Source of the DNA: a virus
Lineage: Duplodnaviria; Heunggongvirae; Uroviricota; Caudoviricetes
Length of the DNA: 10,781 nucleotides
Strand: one strand, 5' to 3'
Virus record (IMG/VR): IMGVR_UViG_2778261567_000015
Span: 1 to 10,781 of that record
In this document: positions 3,532 to 10,781 of the stretch, one piece after another
How the letters are laid out: each line of letters begins with the position of its first letter
Numbering within the stretch: the stretch's first letter is position 1
Made by a program: the position numbers and the translations under genes
The notes under the pieces: model-generated
What the model was told of the DNA's origin: nothing
The model's input: the letters and a program-made list of their open reading frames with translations, nothing else
The model's database searches: none

Positions 3532-3942
3532 TCAGAACGGAATACCATCACCGTAAGGGTCATCGCCTCCCGCTGGTGGCTGATTACCCTGTGTGCCTGT
3601 GGTTTTGCGTCTGTTCCCGCCAGGACGTGCCGCGCGGGCACTGATTACGCTGTCTGCGATAACCTGCCAGCCCTGCCGCGTTTCGCCGTTCTGGCCTGTC
3701 CACTGGCTTACCTGCATCGTGCCGGATACGCTGGCAACATCGCCTTTTTGATGTTTAGCCAGGAAATCGGCCTGTTTGCCAAATGCGATGACCGATAACC
3801 ATAACGTCGCCTGTCCGTCCTGTGCCTGGCTGCATGGCAAAGATACCGCCATACGCGCCAGCGTCATCGGTGTGCCCTTGCTGGTCTGTTTTACCTGCGG
3901 GTCGTCCACCAGCCGCCCGTAAGCGGCTATCTGTGCCGTCAT
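3532..3942 (-). CDS. ssb: single-stranded DNA-binding protein (SSB)
   Basis: OB-fold-like N-terminal pattern (YGRLVDDPQV...WLSVIAFGKQADFLAKHQKGDVASVSGTMQVSQWTGQNGE), Gly/Pro/Gln-rich linker and acidic C-terminal tail DDPYGDGIPF, comparable to the DDDIPF tail of bacterial SSB. Confidence 0.8.
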   Translation of the reverse strand: MTAQIAAYGRLVDDPQVKQTSKGTPMTLARMAVSLPCSQAQDGQATLWLSVIAFGKQADFLAKHQKGDVASVSGTMQVSQWTGQNGETRQGWQVIADSVISARAARPGGNRRKTTGTQGNQPPAGGDDPYGDGIPF

Positions 3943-4208
3943 AATTCCACCTCTCCGGTTTTAACGTTGATGGTTGTTACCTGTTCCGCTTCGGCAATCT
4001 CCCGTTCTGTCAGCGTGGCAAAGTTTGCCGCCGCTGTGGTCATGAATGCGCTTATCAGTTCGGGATGTTCCTTCGCGTATCCTTCCCGCGTGTGGCGGTC
4101 TATCGTTCTGATTGCCACCTTTAAGGCGTGCTCTGTCATGTCTAACGCTTTATATTTTGGCGCTGTTCTGTCTCTGCGCATTTTGGTTATCTCCTCACTC
4201 ATGCTCAC
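3939..4208 (-). CDS. hypothetical protein (about 87-89 aa)
   Basis: ORF coupled to the ssb start (overlap). GTG at 4208 or ATG at 4202, with GTGAGG upstream. No family recognised. Confidence 0.45.
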   Translation of the reverse strand: MSMSEEITKMRRDRTAPKYKALDMTEHALKVAIRTIDRHTREGYAKEHPELISAFMTTAAANFATLTEREIAEAEQVTTINVKTGEVEL

Positions 4209-4395
4209 TTTTACGCCTCACTTTTTAAAGCGTCTCGCTTCGTCTCACTTGAGATTTTTGTGTTTTGTATGTGCATGTTTCATAAGTATTTTTTTACTCC
4301 TCACTTTTGAGCATGTATACAGGTGAGAAAGTGAGTAATCGTGTTAATATTTTGTAAAAACCTCACCATTACTCACTTTTGCTACTCACTTTTTA
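4193..4395. repeat. iteron-like array, candidate replication origin
   Basis: At least 7 direct copies of (C)TCACTTTT (e.g. 4203-4213, 4216-4227, 4296-4308, 4371-4380, 4384-4395) plus inverted GTGAG copies (4323-4335) in AT-rich DNA immediately 3' of the replication ATPase gene. Confidence 0.5.
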
Positions 4396-5790
4396 CAGTG
4401 GTCCTACATCATCACCATCAATGTAAATCACGGCGTCTTTTTCCAGTTTGGCTAACCATCGCCGCATATTTTTCACGTCATACCCAAGCCGTTTCATGTC
4501 ATCACGTAACAGCGGGATCGTGCACTTGTCGCCGTTCTGTGTACGTGAACGGATGCACCCCCATAGCGCGGTATGGTTTTCCGTCTTGTTGCCTGCCTCC
4601 TCGATGCGCTCCAGTTCAACGGGAGGGCGCGGCTTATCCACCACCACCAGCGACGTGATTAACTCCCCGTCAGCGTCGGTAAAAAGCTCCACCACCCGCA
4701 AATCATAGGCAGCCTCTTTGAGTTCCTCCGCGTCCTTCATTTTGGTGCATGAGATAACCAGCGCTTCGCTTCCTGCGTCCTCCCTGCGTATCCGGTATTC
4801 AGCATCCAGCGAAGCACGAAATGCACTGGAACCGCGCGCGCCTTTCGTCTCATCCTTGCCGGAATGGTGAACCACCAGCACCGTGGCCCCTGTGCGCCGT
4901 TTCAGTTCGTCACAACCACGGATAAACGCCCCCATATCACGGGAATCATTTTCATCATTGCCACCAAAGCACCGCGCCAGCGTATCCAGAATAATCATGC
5001 GTACAGGTTTACCCGTTTCCCGCTCCACCTGACGGGCAGCGATAACCAGTTCATCAACATCAAGCGGGACAGCCGGAAAGACCGGACGGTTTACCAGATA
5101 CAGATTTTTCACCTGCTCCCCGTGTACAACCTCCCACGCTCTCACGCGACGCGGTACACCAATACCGCCTTCACCAACCACATAGAGAACAGCGCCATGT
5201 GCAACCCTGCGGCCTCCCCACTGGCGGCCCGTGGAAACGTGACACGCCCACGAACCCGCAAGGAATGATTTATAGGAACCGCTTGCCCCGTATATGCTGC
5301 ATAGCGACGATGCCGGAATAATCCCCTTTACCACGTAATCTAATTGCGTGTCGTATCCGGCAGATCCAACGCTCATCGGTAGCGTGGTTTTTCGCTGGTG
5401 GCTCAGGCTTTCCCCGCGTTCCCATGTCTCCCTAAGCCGTGGAAGCTGGTCGCTCCATTCCTCCAGCAATTCGAAATTTTCAGAAAACAGGCGCGCTTCC
5501 TGGACTCCTGCGATTGCCAGTTTCGTGGCGATGGTTAACAACTGCACTTCGTCAATATTTCCGGCACGTATCACTTTCGCCCTGAACCGACCTTTATCAA
5601 CAATCTGCAAGTTATCCAGTTCGCTTAACTGATAACGCCCCAGGTAAACGGGAGGGACTGGATCGCCTGCTTTTTTGGCCTGTGCAATGATGTAGTGCTC
5701 TGCAAATGAGTGAGCATTATCACCCGCAAAAATAACCGCTTCGGTGTGTTTATCTTTCGGTAACAGTTTTACATTCGGTGCCAGTTTCAT
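4393..5790 (-). CDS. replication ATPase / helicase, RepA-DnaB-type RecA fold (465 aa)
   Basis: Walker A-like GASGSYKS, Walker B-like RMIILDT, VLVVHHSGK motif typical of RepA-like helicases; C-terminal basic domain. Start overlaps the upstream ORF stop (ATGA). Confidence 0.8.
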   Translation of the reverse strand: MKLAPNVKLLPKDKHTEAVIFAGDNAHSFAEHYIIAQAKKAGDPVPPVYLGRYQLSELDNLQIVDKGRFRAKVIRAGNIDEVQLLTIATKLAIAGVQEARLFSENFELLEEWSDQLPRLRETWERGESLSHQRKTTLPMSVGSAGYDTQLDYVVKGIIPASSLCSIYGASGSYKSFLAGSWACHVSTGRQWGGRRVAHGAVLYVVGEGGIGVPRRVRAWEVVHGEQVKNLYLVNRPVFPAVPLDVDELVIAARQVERETGKPVRMIILDTLARCFGGNDENDSRDMGAFIRGCDELKRRTGATVLVVHHSGKDETKGARGSSAFRASLDAEYRIRREDAGSEALVISCTKMKDAEELKEAAYDLRVVELFTDADGELITSLVVVDKPRPPVELERIEEAGNKTENHTALWGCIRSRTQNGDKCTIPLLRDDMKRLGYDVKNMRRWLAKLEKDAVIYIDGDDVGPL

Positions 5791-6762: not shown

Positions 6763-6983
6763 GTACCCCTCCGCATTTTTTTTCGTTAGAAATAAGCGTT
6801 CTTCTTTCCTGTTCATCGCTCAGGAATACGCAGACCTCACCGCTAAGGCGTTTAAGTAAGCCGATGATTGCCCCTGATTCGCTGTCGGTCATCATGCCAG
6901 GGTAATCCTCTGCCAGTGCGCAAATAACTTCGATTTGGTGGGCGCGTTCTGCTGCCTGTTGTAGCGTGATTTCCTGGCTCATA
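6752..6983 (-). CDS. hypothetical small acidic protein (76 aa)
   Basis: Start at ATG 6981-6983 overlapping the stop of the Icd-like gene (ATGA); ends at the TAA at 6752-6754. Confidence 0.5.
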
Positions 6984-7146
6984 AGCCTACCCCCTGACGA
7001 ATACGGGCGACAAAAATAAGATGTGCGTGCGGCAGCTGGGCGCGGGCTTCGCGTTCTGTTGCTGCCGTGACGGTAAAGAGTGAGGTTTGTTTTTCCTGGC
7101 ACTGCATAAAGCGCCAGACAAAGTAAGGGCGTGCGGATACAGCCAT
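6979..7146 (-). CDS. Icd-like small protein, paralog 2 (55 aa)
   Basis: ATG at 7144-7146 with AGGAGCC SD. Paralogous to 7433..7630 (FVWRF...TEREAR...FVARIRQG). Family name 'host cell division inhibitor Icd-like' is from memory. The track ORF extending to 7482 is treated as a non-functional extension. Confidence 0.5.
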   Translation of the reverse strand: MAVSARPYFVWRFMQCQEKQTSLFTVTAATEREARAQLPHAHLIFVARIRQGVGL

Positions 7147-7149
7147 GTG

Positions 7150-7432
7150 AAAGGCTCCTGTAGTGAAATTAAGGAGTCTCGCTACTACGCTGCTAAACGG
7201 GGTGGCGAGACGTAACAGGGTTAGCAGACTGGCACTACAGGAACCAGCGAGCGCAAAGGCTCCCCCGTTACGCCCCGCCATAATGCGGGTATGGGTAGGT
7301 TTACGGACACAAAAAAACCGCATATCGGAATGTAAGCGGCTGTCCGCTGTAGTATTCAGGCTGCTAAACCCGGTCGCCATGTGGGCGATGGGTGAAGCAT
7401 ACAGCCCCGTGATAATTTTTTGCAAGCGGTTT
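7150..7432 (-). other. structured spacer between the Icd-like paralogs; candidate riboregulatory leader
   Basis: Open in both strands with no convincing protein. Contains two direct GCTGCTAAAC copies (7189-7198, 7360-7369) and the complementary GGGTTAGCAGAC (7218-7229); inverted CCTGTAGTG/CACTACAGG (7158-7166 / 7233-7241) overlapping the SD of the 7146 gene; weak hairpin plus 7-nt U-run on the minus strand at 7311-7339. Confidence 0.3.
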
Positions 7433-7630
7433 TTACGCATGATGTGACCCCTGACGAATACGGGCGGCAAATACAGCAACACAACCGGACGGGCAACGGT
7501 TACGCGCTTCGCGTTCCGTCCAGGCGGTTACGTGGATTATTTGAGATTCTCCGGCACTCAGTGCCAGAAAACGCCACACAAAGGCCGTTTGTGTGTGTAC
7601 AAGGTGTGGTATATGATTTACAGCAACCAT
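7433..7630 (-). CDS. Icd-like small protein, paralog 1 (65 aa)
   Basis: ATG at 7628-7630 with AGGAGCC SD; motif FVWRFLAL...TAWTEREARNR...FAARIRQG. First gene downstream of the minus-strand promoter at 7732-7761. Confidence 0.55.
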   Translation of the reverse strand: MVAVNHIPHLVHTQTAFVWRFLALSAGESQIIHVTAWTEREARNRCPSGCVAVFAARIRQGSHHA

Positions 7631-7700
7631 AACGGCTCCTAGTTTACGTTGTTGGTTAGAAGCCCCGTATGTGTTCCAGCACTGCGGGGTTTCGTCTTTT
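7585..7700. repeat. copy 1 of a ~115-bp duplicated unit (5' leader plus first codons of the Icd-like gene)
   Basis: Shares with 8330-8447 the blocks CGTTTGTGTGTGTA, CCATAA, TGGTTAGAAGCCC and a GC hairpin followed by a T-run (7663-7700), in the same order and spacing. Confidence 0.6.
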
Positions 7701-7719
7701 CTGTACCTTGCATCAACAA

Positions 7720-7802
7720 GGTGTAAGACACAATGTAAAATAACGGTGTCTTACACGTCAACCCTTCAAAATATTTTTTTTTCGTGTATATTGTCTTACA
7801 CC
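7720..7802. promoter_or_regulatory. divergent promoter pair with inverted-repeat operator
   Basis: Inverted repeat GGTGTAAGACAC (7720-7731) / GGTGTCTTACAC (7745-7756) and a third half-site TGTCTTACACC (7792-7802). Minus-strand promoter TTGACG (complement of 7756-7761) and TACATT (complement of 7732-7737). Plus-strand promoter TTCAAA (7765-7770), 16 bp, TATATT (7787-7792). Confidence 0.45.
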
Positions 7803-7822
7803 AAAAACATGAGGGGTTAAAC

Positions 7823-8002
7823 ATGGCAACGGGTCCAAAGAATGCAAAATCACAATCTGTAACTGCACGTATTGCCCATGAAATTATTGAAGGCATGGAG
7901 AACGTGAAAGAAGAAGGTGAAAGCACGGGGCAGTTTATAAACGCAGCCATGCGCGGCGAAATCAAACGCCGCCAGCGTCGCAAGGCCAAAGAATCAGAAT
8001 AA
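7823..8002 (+). CDS. ribbon-helix-helix (CopG/Arc/MetJ-type) DNA-binding protein (59 aa)
   Basis: ATG at 7823 with GAGGGG SD. Predicted beta-strand QSVTARI followed by two helices (AHEIIEGMENVKEEG, STGQFINAAMRGEI) and a basic tail. The track's GTG start at 7784 lies inside the promoter and is not favoured. Confidence 0.55.
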   Translation: MATGPKNAKSQSVTARIAHEIIEGMENVKEEGESTGQFINAAMRGEIKRRQRRKAKESE

Positions 8003-8059
8003 TCACTATCAGCGCCGTGGTGTGAGGTACTACGGCGCATTGCTTTACAGGGCAGTACC

Positions 8060-8287
8060 ATGACCAACAACACACTATCACCAATACAAGACACGCAAAC
8101 GCAAGATGATGAAATCATCCGGCAAAGGCAGTCAGAAGCCTGCGCCAGACTTGAGGAAGAACTAACCAGAACAAAAATACCACCACCAGCGCCGCGCTTA
8201 GTGCCACCAGAAAAATTTGCCCTTGAAGATTTTGTCGATAAATACCCACGGCGGCTTAAATCCGGCAAAAACCGACCGCCAGGATGA
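8060..8287 (+). CDS. hypothetical protein (75 aa), acidic N-terminus, Pro-rich centre, basic C-terminus
   Basis: ORF downstream of the RHH gene on the same strand. Weak SD (AGGG 12 nt upstream). Followed by hairpin GAAACGGA-TTAT-TCCGTTTC (8308-8327). No family recognised. Confidence 0.4.
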   Translation: MTNNTLSPIQDTQTQDDEIIRQRQSEACARLEEELTRTKIPPPAPRLVPPEKFALEDFVDKYPRRLKSGKNRPPG

Positions 8288-8329
8288 GTGCACAAAACCG
8301 AACTCTGAAACGGATTATTCCGTTTCCGG

Positions 8330-8447
8330 GGCGTTTGTGTGTGTATAAAGAGTAAGCTATGCTCTTTTATAGCCATAATCTTTACCTCAATTAATGGTTT
8401 GGTTAGAAGCCCGTTGGTGTTCATAGCGCCAGCGGGCTTTGCTTTTT
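8330..8447. repeat. copy 2 of the duplicated leader unit, carrying a remnant Icd-like start
   Basis: Same block order as 7585-7700. Minus-strand ATG at 8374-8376 with SD GAGGTA encodes MAIKEHSLLFIHTQT (compare MVAVNHIPHLVHTQTA) and then loses the Icd-like sequence. GC hairpin 8409-8437 plus T-run 8438-8447. Confidence 0.55.
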
Positions 8448-8506
8448 GTGTTGATTGTGTGTAATGTGTCACTACACATAAATACATTACATGAGGTGTA
8501 ATTAAC

Positions 8507-8686
8507 GTGTCAACACACAAAAACGAAAGGCGTGGTAATCCTCCGTTCCAGTTCCGTTTAGATCCTGACTTACGGGAAAAGATGGAAAAGGCACAACAAC
8601 ATGACGGCGATGATTCTCTTGCTGCCTGGATAAAGCGAATAATCCGCAAAGAATTACAGCAACGCGGCATAGAACCCAAAGGGTAA
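8507..8686 (+). CDS. Arc/Mnt-type ribbon-helix-helix repressor (59 aa, GTG start)
   Basis: GTG at 8507 with GAGGTG SD 8 nt upstream; stop TAA at 8684-8686. PPFQFRLDPDLREKMEKAQQ...SLAAWIKRIIRKEL resembles P22 Arc (PQFNLRWPREVLDLVRKVAEE) and Mnt (PHFNFRMPMEVREKLKFRAE). Absent from the ORF track because it is under 60 aa. Confidence 0.55.
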   Translation: MSTHKNERRGNPPFQFRLDPDLREKMEKAQQHDGDDSLAAWIKRIIRKELQQRGIEPKG

Positions 8687-8836
8687 TTACATTGCCCACC
8701 AGCCTGATAGCGGCTATCATTCCCGTGCTTATGTTTGGGATCACATACACATAAGGCGCAGCAGGTTAATTGTTCACAAGGGCGTTCCGGCAACGGGGCG
8801 CTTTTTGTTATGTTCATCGTGTTATGCCTCACACCA

Positions 8837-9043
8837 TTACGCAGCCGTTCCGCGTGCTTCCTGCTCACGTTCTTTCATCCATGCGATTACGTCTTCCTCA
8901 TACCATCCGCGACGGCGTAAACCAACGCGAAAACCCTGCGGAAATTCTCCGGCGTTGATCATGCTTTGAAGCGTGCTGTCTGCCTTGATGTAGATAAGTT
9001 TTTTTACTTCCTGGCGAAAGATGACTTTTTTGATTGCTTCCAT
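8837..9043 (-). CDS. alpA: AlpA-family phage transcriptional regulator (68 aa)
   Basis: ADSTLQSMINAGEFPQGFRVGLRRRGWYEEDVIAWMKERE fits the AlpA/Vis MerR-like HTH pattern (...GxFPKPxKLGxRxxxWxxxEVxxW). Position next to the integrase is typical. Confidence 0.75.
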   Translation of the reverse strand: MEAIKKVIFRQEVKKLIYIKADSTLQSMINAGEFPQGFRVGLRRRGWYEEDVIAWMKEREQEARGTAA

Positions 9044-9539: not shown

Positions 9540-10781
9540 CTAAACGGCTCGGATACCCCTTTTACCACTGGCGAGGGTTACGCCCGTCGCCGCAGCCTCG
9601 ACAAATTCGCCCCACCAGCGCATAAGCACCACGCGTTTTTCTATGTAGTTGCTCCGGTTGTATGCCCGTCTCACTTCGTTAGTGTCGACGTGGGCAAGTG
9701 CGGCCTCGATTACGTCCGGCTCGAATCCTTCCTCGTTCGCTGCTGTACTGAATATGGCGCGTAATCCATGAGACACCAGCACGCCAGCGAACCCCATGCG
9801 TCGTAATGCTGCGTTTGCTGTCTGGCTGTTCATTGGCTGCCGTGGGTCTTTCAGACTCGGGAAAACATAATCGCGGTGGTGGCTGATTGGTTTCATGGCC
9901 TCCAGCACCGCCATAGCCTGACCGGAAAGTGGGATAACGTGATCCCTGCGCATCTTCATGCGTCCGGCGGGTATCGTCCAGCGTTGCGCGTCCAGGTCGA
10001 TTTCATCCTACCGCGTTGATGACGCTTCGGCGGGACGGGTTACGGTCAGTAACTGCCATTCAATCAGTAATCTGGTCTGCCGTTCTGTTGCCGATACTGA
10101 TAAAGCCTGCATAAGCTCCGGCAACTGTTCGGGGCGGATTGTTGGCATATGTTTTTTTACAGGGGAGGGGAACGCCTTACGCACATTCATAGCCGGATTG
10201 GCATCAATCAGCCCACTGTTGGCGGCGTAATCCATTACCTCATTAACGCGCTGTAAAACCCGTTTGAGTGTTTCCAGGTTGCCGCGCTCCTTGATGGGGG
10301 TAAGCACCTCAACGAACCTGCGAGCGGTCAGGGTGTCTATTGGGGTGTTGCCGATGAACGGGAATACATATTTATCCAGCGATCGCCAGATGTCTTTAAT
10401 CGTGTTGGGGGCCAGATTCTGGCTGATTTTCACCTGGTACCATGCCGCCGCCACATTTTCGAACGTGTTCCCTTGTCTTCGGGCCTCTGCCTCTCGTTTT
10501 TTCTTCTCATGGCCCTGCGGGTCAGTTCCGGCACTGATTAACGCTCTGTACTCGCTACGGCGTTTTCTGGCATCAGCCAGGGAAACATCATCAAGCGATC
10601 CAAAACTCAGCAATATTCTTTTTTTGTCCGATGGCCGGTAGTAGGAAAATCGCCAGAGTTTTGATCCGGACGGTTTGACCAGGAGAAAAAGCCCTCCGCC
10701 GTCCTGTAGGGTGTATTCCTTTTCCGCTGGTCTGGCTGCTTTGATCTGCACCGTGGTTAATGGGGGTGTTTTTCTCGCCAT
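9540..10781 (-). pseudogene. int: P4-type tyrosine integrase interrupted by a single in-frame TAG
   Basis: N-terminal ORF 10011-10781 (GGGLFLLVKPSGSKLWRFSYY...) and C-terminal ORF 9540-9959 (HGLRAIF, RRAYNRSNY) are in the same frame, separated only by TAG (complement of 10008-10010). Read-through gives ...SSTR*DEIDLDAQRWTIPAGRMK..., where related integrases usually have Trp, consistent with TGG to TAG. Start codon is at the window edge. Confidence 0.75.

Follow-up and report, generated by a model that had tools for sequence, protein, structure and literature searches.

An iteron array downstream of a RepA-family helicase gene as the probable replication origin of an Escherichia coli phage-inducible chromosomal island

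The replication origin (ori) of GN-PICIs lies 3′ of pri-rep and is built from two sets of iterons that flank an AT-rich region (Fillol-Salom et al. 2018, ISME J, PMC6092414). In EcCICFT073, a fragment carrying rep and ori maintained a ts plasmid, and deletion of either rep or ori impaired maintenance (PMC6092414). The origins of SaPIs follow a related plan: 6-12 penta- or hexanucleotide iterons stand directly after rep around a central AT-rich region, with some of the copies in the opposite orientation (PMC9371898). These iterons of 5-6 nt are recognized by a winged helix at the C-terminus of the SaPI Rep protein, an initiator-helicase that loads itself (PMC9371898). Short repeated octamers are likewise read by the winged helix of the P4 alpha protein (in part from PMC6092414).

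We analyzed a 10,781-nt stretch of DNA from the IMG/VR collection (hereafter, the window), in which a first-pass annotation had proposed an iteron origin served by an adjacent initiator/helicase, the two making up an autonomous replication module together with an SSB gene. Set beside the GN-PICI and SaPI layouts, this interpretation fits an established plan. Four lines of evidence support it, namely the identity of the element, the published layout, conservation across related loci, and co-variation between protein and DNA. The array at 4191-4393 is most probably the replication origin of a PICI of the EcCICFT073/EcCIO42 type. An origin of this type has already been published for the island family, and EcCIO42 has the same allele; since both the existence and the position of the origin were to be expected, the finding is mainly a confirmation of a feature that annotation pipelines omit. 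Three points appear to be new with respect to the literature consulted: the association of helicase residue 441 with base 4 of the iteron, a conserved dyad, and the chimeric makeup of the Pri-Rep “alleles.” These points are refinements, not surprises, but they open origin specificity to direct testing.

Gene content and identity of the island

The minus strand encodes every long ORF of the window, in the order int-alpA-...-DUF4222-rep-(ori)-83aa-ssb-perC-capsid. The integrase gene (10781->9540) is interrupted by an in-frame TAG at 10008-10010, at which the 95%-identical integrase of strain DEC9B has Trp. Pfam searches identified an AlpA-like HTH gene (9043->8837), a DUF4222 gene (6086->5787), and two Icd-like ORFs between them; the gene for the 465-aa RepA-family (AAA_25) helicase and putative initiator (rep, 5790->4393) follows. 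A 202-nt intergenic stretch (4392->4191) separates rep from an 83-aa gene (3939..4190, phrog_1231), which stands directly after the candidate origin. The candidate origin region carries no annotation in RefSeq. In agreement with a RefSeq homologue, the 83-aa gene starts with the ATG at 4190, and another possible ATG is at 4181. It is part of a conserved rep-ori-83aa-ssb block, the last member of which encodes the island SSB (3532..3942; 136 aa; Pfam SSB, E=1.7e-16; TIGR00621), whose C-terminus (...DGIPF) resembles the tip of E. coli SSB (DDDIPF). Genes for PerC, a 68-aa ORF, a lambda-E-type capsid protein, and a decoration protein come after ssb in this order, and a Nu1-family small terminase (TerS; 538-1092; Pfam) is the last in transcription order. 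Given that every gene is on the minus strand, the array sits just 3′ of the 465-aa helicase gene, and the first-pass annotation was right to place it downstream of the ATPase gene. Apart from the helicase and the SSB, no replication proteins were found in the island by ORF list and Pfam.

We took as the hallmarks of a PICI a size of ~10-15 kb, int, alpA, a unidirectional operon, genes for phage interference or packaging, and a specific att site. The window carries, on one strand, int and the genes for the AlpA-like HTH, Icd-like, DUF4222, Rep, SSB, PerC, capsid E, decoration, and TerS proteins, and its genes run in the same order as in EcCIO42 and EcCICFT073, two published PICIs. Judged by this gene content, the window is a phage-inducible chromosomal island (PICI) of E. 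coli and belongs to the EcCICFT073/EcCIO42 type. Its context is also P4-like, with a P4-like integrase, an AlpA/Vis-like regulator, and a C4-type antisense RNA. The nearest relative is an ~11-kb island of strain DEC9B, located at tRNA-Pro between yejM and yejO. The module itself is very common: a search of 5426 complete E. coli genomes with rep-ori-ssb DNA gave matches in 1561, nearly always on the chromosome.

Owing to the nonsense codon in the integrase gene, where DEC9B has Trp, the present copy may have lost its mobility, and its origin may never fire from an excised circle. One could go further and regard the array as an origin by descent that is inert here, the island being a decaying remnant. 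We consider this unlikely: rep is intact and its Walker motifs are invariant, all 11 iterons fit the class that goes with Asn at residue 441, and rep-ori is 97% identical to that of the DEC9B island.

The repeat array between rep and the 83-aa gene

The array at 4191-4393 contains 10 exact cores (GTGAG/CTCAC) and 1 degenerate core (GCGAG, or CTCGC). It had been said to hold at least seven direct TCACTTTT-type repeats plus inverted copies within 4193-4395. In this interval, we counted five exact direct copies of TCACTTTT on the plus strand, so the number seven is reached only if degenerate copies are counted, and the inverted copies are two (4323-4327 and 4328-4335). Shorter words are more frequent in the same interval, with eight direct and two inverted copies of the 5-nt core CTCAC (GTGAG on the gene strand), six direct and one inverted of CTCACTT, and five direct and one inverted of TCACTTT. 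The interval thereby holds 6 of the 7 TCACTTT copies of the window, for the whole of which 1.33 are expected. The AT-rich setting of the array noted at first was borne out, the intergenic stretch having 64% A+T vs. 50% in the window.

A core of 5 nt in AT-rich intergenic DNA might be suspected to cluster by chance, and 1 of 200 whole-window shuffles did have seven copies of TCACTTT somewhere in the window. However, none of our simulations came near 10 cores in 211 nt. In first-order Markov simulations of the window (n=2000), the richest 211-nt stretch held 2.2 cores on average and at no time more than 5; when the region was simulated from its own composition, the mean was 0.49 cores and the highest count 4. 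Together with positions, orientation, and spacing that are kept across genera, these simulations refute a chance cluster, to which we assign next to no probability.

In gene direction, the array consists of three direct repeats, two inverted repeats, TGTATACA, one direct repeat, a 46-nt spacer (76% A+T), and five direct repeats; the conserved iteron unit is 9 bp. On the rep side, the gene strand reads TAA-AAAGTGAG-TAGC-AAAAGTGAG-TAAT-GGTGAG-(25 nt)-CTCACTTT-CTCAC-C-TGTATACA-TGCTC-AAAAGTGAG, and on the distal side, after the 46 nt, AAGTGAG-ACGA-AGCGAG-(12 nt)-AAAAGTGAG-GCGT-AAAAGTGAG-CAT-GAGTGAG-GAG. The rep-proximal iterons 1-3 (4362..4393, minus strand, as are the elements that follow) are all direct, keep their positions in the alignment, and are spaced by 13 and 10 bp; they are AAAAGTGAG at 4385-4393, AAAAGTGAG at 4372-4380, and ATGGTGAG with its core at 4362-4366. 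A dyad element (4300..4335), detected as an inverted repeat, has outer cores 31 bp apart and is composed of an inverted CTCACTTT (4328-4335), an inverted CTCAC (4323-4327), TGTATACA (4314-4321), and a direct AAAAGTGAG (4300-4308). The AT-rich spacer (4253..4298), with 27 A vs. 8 T on the gene strand, is a candidate DNA-unwinding region. The rep-distal iterons 7-11 (4194..4252) are all direct, have their cores at 4244-4248 (GTGAG), 4234-4238 (GCGAG), 4217-4221, 4204-4208, and 4194-4198, and are spaced by 10, 17, 13, and 10 bp. No Rfam match was found in the origin.

To compare the array with its counterparts, we used 160 related loci, half of them (80) taken from species-representative genomes and the other 80 from IMG/VR. 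In nearly all of them, the 260 nt past the rep stop hold 6-11 copies of a short word, 1-2 of which are inverted, and the order is kept: three direct copies, the inverted copy or copies, a (T/C)ATATA-like center, one direct copy, an AT-rich spacer, and four to five direct copies. This layout follows rep in ~160 loci throughout the Enterobacterales (Escherichia, Salmonella-like, Xenorhabdus, Citrobacter, Pantoea, Pectobacterium, Serratia, Morganella, Photorhabdus, and Yersinia). The rep-proximal set has two inverted and four direct iterons, and no inverted copy occurs in the distal set of E. coli-type islands; a Xenorhabdus locus (L008) has one inverted copy within its distal set. In all homologous loci examined, the array is directly 3′ of rep in the same direction of transcription, and it always adjoins rep, even where the late modules of the islands differ.

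The dyad recurs with similar regularity. Of 129 unique origins with clear iterons, 110 have an inverted iteron, a (T/C)ATATA-like center, and a direct iteron with cores 29 or 31 bp apart, and these origins range from Escherichia to Xenorhabdus, Pantoea, Pectobacterium, Serratia, and Morganella. The cores also stand out by their conservation, which in 61 unique E. coli-type regions is 0.895 vs. 0.742 for the other intergenic positions (Mann-Whitney p=3e-6); the last 60 nt of rep, at 0.83, fall below the cores. A circular 17-kb Klebsiella “plasmid” record proved to be a PICI-like element with a version of the module that combines Ser at residue 441 with GTGCGG iterons, which is suggestive.

The array had also been described as overlapping both neighboring genes. 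At the rep end, this is true of the stop codon but of no coding sequence: the first repeat has just the final two bases in common with the TAA at 4393-4395. At the other end, the overlap is real, as the last repeat (GAGTGAGGAG, core 4194-4198) overlaps both the ribosome-binding (SD) site of the 83-aa gene and the region annotated as its start. An additional regulatory role is therefore possible. It is less easy to see the array as mainly an operator or a translational control element for the 83aa-ssb-perC-capsid genes, bound by the C-terminal domain of the RepA-family protein or by another island protein, with replication starting elsewhere or depending on a helper phage. Plasmid iteron-binding initiators commonly autoregulate, and the co-variation with residue 441 would fit any site bound by the RepA-family protein. 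However, a crude scan of 3900-4700 revealed no sigma-70-like promoter or terminator, and the location of the array after rep, not before it, rules out autoregulation of rep transcription initiation. Moreover, 11 sites in two sets with an AT-rich spacer and a conserved dyad form the layout of an origin, as in the published PICI ori, and origin and regulatory roles can coexist. We thus regard a mainly regulatory array as improbable and retain the origin as the preferred reading.

The helicase and the specificity of its iterons

In the 465-aa helicase, an N-terminal domain of ~125 aa is followed by an AAA_25 ATPase core (residues 147-314; Pfam, E=3e-44) and, as the third part, a predicted C-terminal winged helix. 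It matches phrog_2850 over its full length, a family labeled “unknown function” in PHROGs. The Walker A (GASGSYKS, with K174) and Walker B (IILD269) motifs are invariant in 15 homologues, and phmmer detected similarity to RSF1010 RepA (1g8y; E=0.0055). With the full-length model as the query, Foldseek returned T7 gp4, Twinkle, KaiC, and RSF1010 RepA at a probability of 1.00. The helicase core of this model is of low confidence (pLDDT 30-79), and its poor modeling accounts for huge RMSDs, so these matches are supporting evidence at most. By its RecA-type core, its Walker A and B motifs, and its similarity in sequence and, in the low-confidence model, in fold, the core is a RecA-fold, SF4-like ATPase of the RepA/DnaB/gp4 kind.

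Homologues from Xenorhabdus have a Zn-ribbon and a Toprim primase ahead of the same AAA_25 core and winged helix, and the E. coli helicase has no recognizable primase domain. Its N-terminal ~125 aa have no match in Pfam and are 45% identical to the N-terminus of the EcCICFT073 Pri-Rep protein, whereas the rest of the two proteins is nonhomologous. A shared N-terminal domain on otherwise unrelated proteins means that the published “allelic variants” of Pri-Rep are domain chimeras. On this sequence comparison, the Pri-Rep alleles are a common N-terminal domain joined to nonhomologous cassettes of an SF4 or SF3 helicase with its origin.

AlphaFold2 predicts a winged-helix domain at residues 404-465 (4396..4581, minus strand), which we propose as the reader of the iterons. 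It has helices at 404-418, 425-434, and 442-451 and strands at 455-458 and 461-464, with a pLDDT of 78-90 in the full-length model and >90 when the domain is modeled alone. Foldseek matches of the domain in the PDB were exclusively winged-helix DNA binders (MepR-DNA, DnaD-N, DtxR, LexA-DNA, and ORC). Their scores are weak and generic (E 0.05-0.3, probability up to 0.98), and no specific structural relative can be named. The P4 alpha and SaPI Rep domains were absent from the 50 best matches listed, BLASTP found no similarity between the winged helix and EcCICFT073 Pri-Rep, and, with only the C-terminal 91 aa as the query, a protein search retrieved E. coli fragments and nothing else. Residue 441 (Asn; codon AAT at 4468..4470, minus strand) is the N-cap directly before helix 3, the predicted recognition helix, and we propose that it reads base 4 of the GTG-N-G core.

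The iterons differ between islands in a concerted manner. All 9-11 copies of an island switch jointly at a single base of (G)TG-N-G, giving GTGAG in the window, GTGGG in other islands, and GTGCGG in a third group. The exceptions to this uniformity are two islands of the Asn type (L148 and L166), which hold two to three GTGGG among eight sites. Concerted change of this kind would be the pattern expected for sites that are read by one co-evolving protein.

In an alignment of 124 unique helicase variants over their C-terminal 330 residues, we scored each column against the class of the adjacent iterons. Asn at residue 441 went with A at base 4 in 38/38 unique variants, His with G in 40/40, Lys with G in 33/33, and Ser with C in 7/7. 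Across these 118 unique variants, residue 441 was the sole perfectly predictive column among ~360 alignment columns. The runner-up column had a normalized mutual information (MI/H) of 0.65; in the 42 E. coli-like variants, the runner-up there had 0.41. The 83-aa protein encoded downstream was considered as the iteron reader and rejected: no column of it perfectly tracks the iteron class, the best MI/H being 0.74 at residues that abut the origin.

Recombination has shuffled the remainder of the helicase among the E. coli-like variants. On neighbor-joining trees computed with column 441 masked, we counted at least 5-6 class switches in the E. coli-like variants and 8-9 over all sequences. Pairs of opposite class differ by as few as three C-terminal residues, and residue 451 likewise differs in the nearest of these pairs. 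Columns 451-463 lie nearer the origin than codon 441 and yet associate more weakly with the iteron class (0.24-0.38); linkage or hitchhiking alone, therefore, does not explain the behavior of residue 441.

Contacts of Asn with adenine and of His or Lys with guanine are textbook preferences between side chains and bases. From the co-variation and the predicted fold, we infer that the helicase’s own C-terminal domain would be the reader of the iterons. The co-variation indicates co-evolution and does not imply contact, and there may be a second determinant, such as residue 451. A stricter proposal is that a one-residue/one-base code sets origin specificity, in which Asn, His/Lys, and Ser at residue 441 would read base 4 of AAGTG-N-G as A, G, and C, respectively, and in which at least 5-9 natural switches would each have converted ~10 sites in concert. 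We see the chances for and against this code as evenly balanced. If it is true, the islands would be mutually orthogonal satellite replicons, and a single N441H exchange with A->G changes in the iterons should retarget replication. In a casual look at IMG/VR loci filed under one genome identifier, pairs of the same class and of different classes both occurred, with no evidence that co-resident islands avoid a common iteron class.

The co-variation also bears on a possible function of the array in packaging (cos/pac) or partition, in which the Nu1-like TerS or a centromere-binding protein would read it. The island does encode a Nu1-family TerS, and lambda cosB, too, is made of short repeated protein-binding sites. 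However, 3 kb separate the array from terS, whereas it is always next to rep; its sequence tracks a residue of the RepA-family protein, and the island has no ParA/ParB genes. On grounds of position and co-variation, we rejected both roles as highly unlikely.

Proposed mechanism and comparison with known systems

The repeats and their nonrandomness, the conserved architecture, the joint switching of the copies, and a co-variation confined to residue 441 of a predicted winged helix are established here. Iteron binding, the melting site, self-loading, the role of the SSB, and priming are proposals modeled on SaPI Rep and on viral initiator-helicases. In the resulting scheme, the 465-aa RepA-family protein would act as both initiator and helicase. 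Its C-terminal winged helix would bind the 9-bp iterons (AAAAGTGAG), with Asn441 reading the A at core position 4. The rep-proximal set, with its dyad centered on TGTATACA, and the rep-distal set would bring subunits to both sides of the dyad and spacer, and the DNA may melt at the A-rich 46-nt spacer or at the dyad. The RecA-fold helicase, presumably a hexamer, would then load itself without DnaA or a separate loader, the island SSB would coat the single strands and might recruit parts of the host replisome through its DGIPF tip, and primers could be supplied by host primase or another function.

The natural variants point to a precise determinant of specificity, residue 441 vs. base 4 of the iteron. 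If this determinant is true, it would offer a handle for orthogonal PICI-based replicons or delivery vehicles, and cross-replication between co-resident satellites would become predictable.

Among plasmid systems, classical iteron plasmids (pPS10, R6K, RK2, F, and P1) have tandem iterons of 17-22 bp and Rep proteins that are not helicases. These Reps require DnaA boxes, DnaB, and DnaC. The locus shares with them repeated sites beside an AT-rich element, and plasmid initiators read DNA via winged helices, as is proposed for the window helicase. Nevertheless, a classical plasmid origin was rejected: the repeat unit is 9 bp, the adjacent protein is a helicase, a scan of the origin found no IHF or GATC sites, and no DnaA box was present in it within 1 mismatch except for one weak TTTTACAAA. 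The “classic” iteron layout put forward in the first-pass annotation holds in the sense of PICI and SaPI origins, with iterons of 5-9 bp and a self-loading initiator-helicase, and not in that of the classical plasmids.

RSF1010 RepA (1g8y) is the nearest solved relative of the ATPase core, a hexameric helicase from a DnaA-independent replicon. IncQ plasmids rely on two further proteins, the initiator RepC, which binds the 20-bp iterons of oriV, and the primase RepB, which primes at the ssi sites (ssiA/ssiB). Unlike these plasmids, the window helicase carries its predicted winged helix itself and stands beside 9-bp iterons, and the homology is limited to the helicase core. The ORF list and Pfam revealed no RepC or RepB homologue in the island, and an IncQ (RSF1010) replicon was rejected on these grounds. 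T7 gp4 and Twinkle resemble the protein as the top fold matches of the full-length model and in the Zn-ribbon, Toprim, and AAA_25 arrangement of the Xenorhabdus members; T7 gp4 is not known to have an origin-binding domain or an iteron origin.

Satellite systems come closer in organization. Like the island, P4 is a satellite replicon, and like P4 alpha, the window protein unites in one polypeptide a helicase and a predicted C-terminal winged-helix origin binder. P4 alpha, unlike the window protein, is a primase joined to an SF3 (D5-type) helicase; the P4 iteron sequence differs, and P4 requires two separated repeat clusters, ori and crr. The array resembles a SaPI origin in its short iterons around an AT-rich region, here six on the rep side of the 46-nt spacer and five distal to it. 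SaPI Reps are AAA+ proteins of SF3/SF6 with 3′->5′ polarity and have no sequence similarity to the window helicase, for which, as a RecA-fold AAA_25 protein, 5′->3′ polarity would be expected. The structurally studied initiator-helicases of PICIs belong to SF3/SF6, and the protein proposed here would be a self-loading one with a RecA-type, SF4-like core.

Relative to the GN-PICI references, whose iterons we read directly from the EcCIO42 and EcCICFT073 loci, the window island is a separate copy at another site (tRNA-Pro/yejM in the closest relative). The experimentally tested EcCICFT073 has the same backbone, including a 136-aa ssb (c1497) at the same place as the window SSB, but its Pri-Rep is of the D5_N/DUF5906/Pox_D5 (SF3) type and its iterons are TCTACC/GGTAGA. 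EcCIO42 has the same type of RepA-family helicase, the same 83-aa neighbor, and the same GTGAG iteron as the window.

Mixed and duplicated iteron arrays and a possible episomal form

Two of the IMG/VR loci related to the window, L148 and L166, have mixed iteron arrays in the first 200 nt after rep. In both, the helicase carries Asn441, the residue that accompanies GTGAG iterons, and the rep-proximal iterons are GTGAG; two to three of the distal iterons are GTGGG, and the spacer is similar to that of GTGGG-type origins. By their sequence, these arrays look like the product of either intra-origin recombination or a specificity switch caught midway. Second arrays were found in two further loci. 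In Xenorhabdus beddingii (L008), a GTGGG-class array lies 230–300 nt after rep, behind a GTGAG origin, and in E. coli ETEC1738 (L007), the GTGAG array is present twice in a 478-nt intergenic region. These extra arrays may serve as additional origins, or they may be left over from islands once arranged in tandem.

The origin architecture of the window also recurs on a circular element of 16,971 bp, K. pneumoniae pKp_Goe_795-4 (CP018459.1), where the iterons are GTGCGG and the RepA-type helicase has Ser at the 441 position. Its genes further include an integrase, an AlpA-like protein, a capsid, a head-tail adaptor, and a terminase. Deposited as a "plasmid," the element is nevertheless, judged from its sequence, a PICI-like satellite, and the record suggests a circular episomal form.

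Late genes and integrase

The late module of the window comprises genes for a Nu1-type small terminase (538–1092), a head decoration protein (1402–1737), and a lambda-E-type major capsid protein (1749–2804); no portal, protease, or large terminase gene was found in the window's island. Islands that share its rep-ori differ widely in their late modules, with a ClpP-capsid fusion in L006 and ProQ/FinO in L007. Comparison with the 95% identical integrase of the DEC9B island, the closest relative, revealed an in-frame TAG (10008–10010, minus strand) in the integrase gene (9540–10781), which replaces a Trp (...EASSTR*DEIDL in the window, ...EASSARWEEIDL in DEC9B). This copy of the island is probably incapable of its own excision or integration.

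C4 RNA and neighboring reading frames

An Rfam match to C4 antisense RNA (RF01695; 72 bits, gathering score 45) lies at 7198–7285 on the minus strand, within an ORF (6979–7482) whose RefSeq homologues are labeled "host cell division inhibitor Icd-like protein." C4/isrK matches have been mentioned for GN-PICIs (PMC10111431). The DEC9B island, collinear elsewhere, lacks ∼700 nt (7704–8399) at the corresponding place. A mechanically listed 409-aa ORF (7639–8868), with a Cys/Ser-rich, low-complexity translation, is probably spurious.

SSB and helicase N terminus

The island SSB (3532–3942) has 136 aa vs. 178 aa for the host SSB but, despite its short length, retains a C-terminal tip (...DGIPF) similar to the host's DDDIPF protein-interaction motif. 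In the helicase, residues 1–126 (5413–5790) are predicted to form alternating strands and helices (pLDDT 73–91), and the same domain heads DUF927 proteins of Klebsiella plasmids. It also matches the N terminus of the EcCICFT073 Pri-Rep (L169, 7242–7640) with 45% identity over ∼125 aa (E=1e-29), although Pri-Rep is of the SF3/D5 type and the window protein is a RecA-fold helicase. On this similarity, the N-terminal ∼125 aa are read as a module of unknown function common to otherwise nonhomologous helicases.
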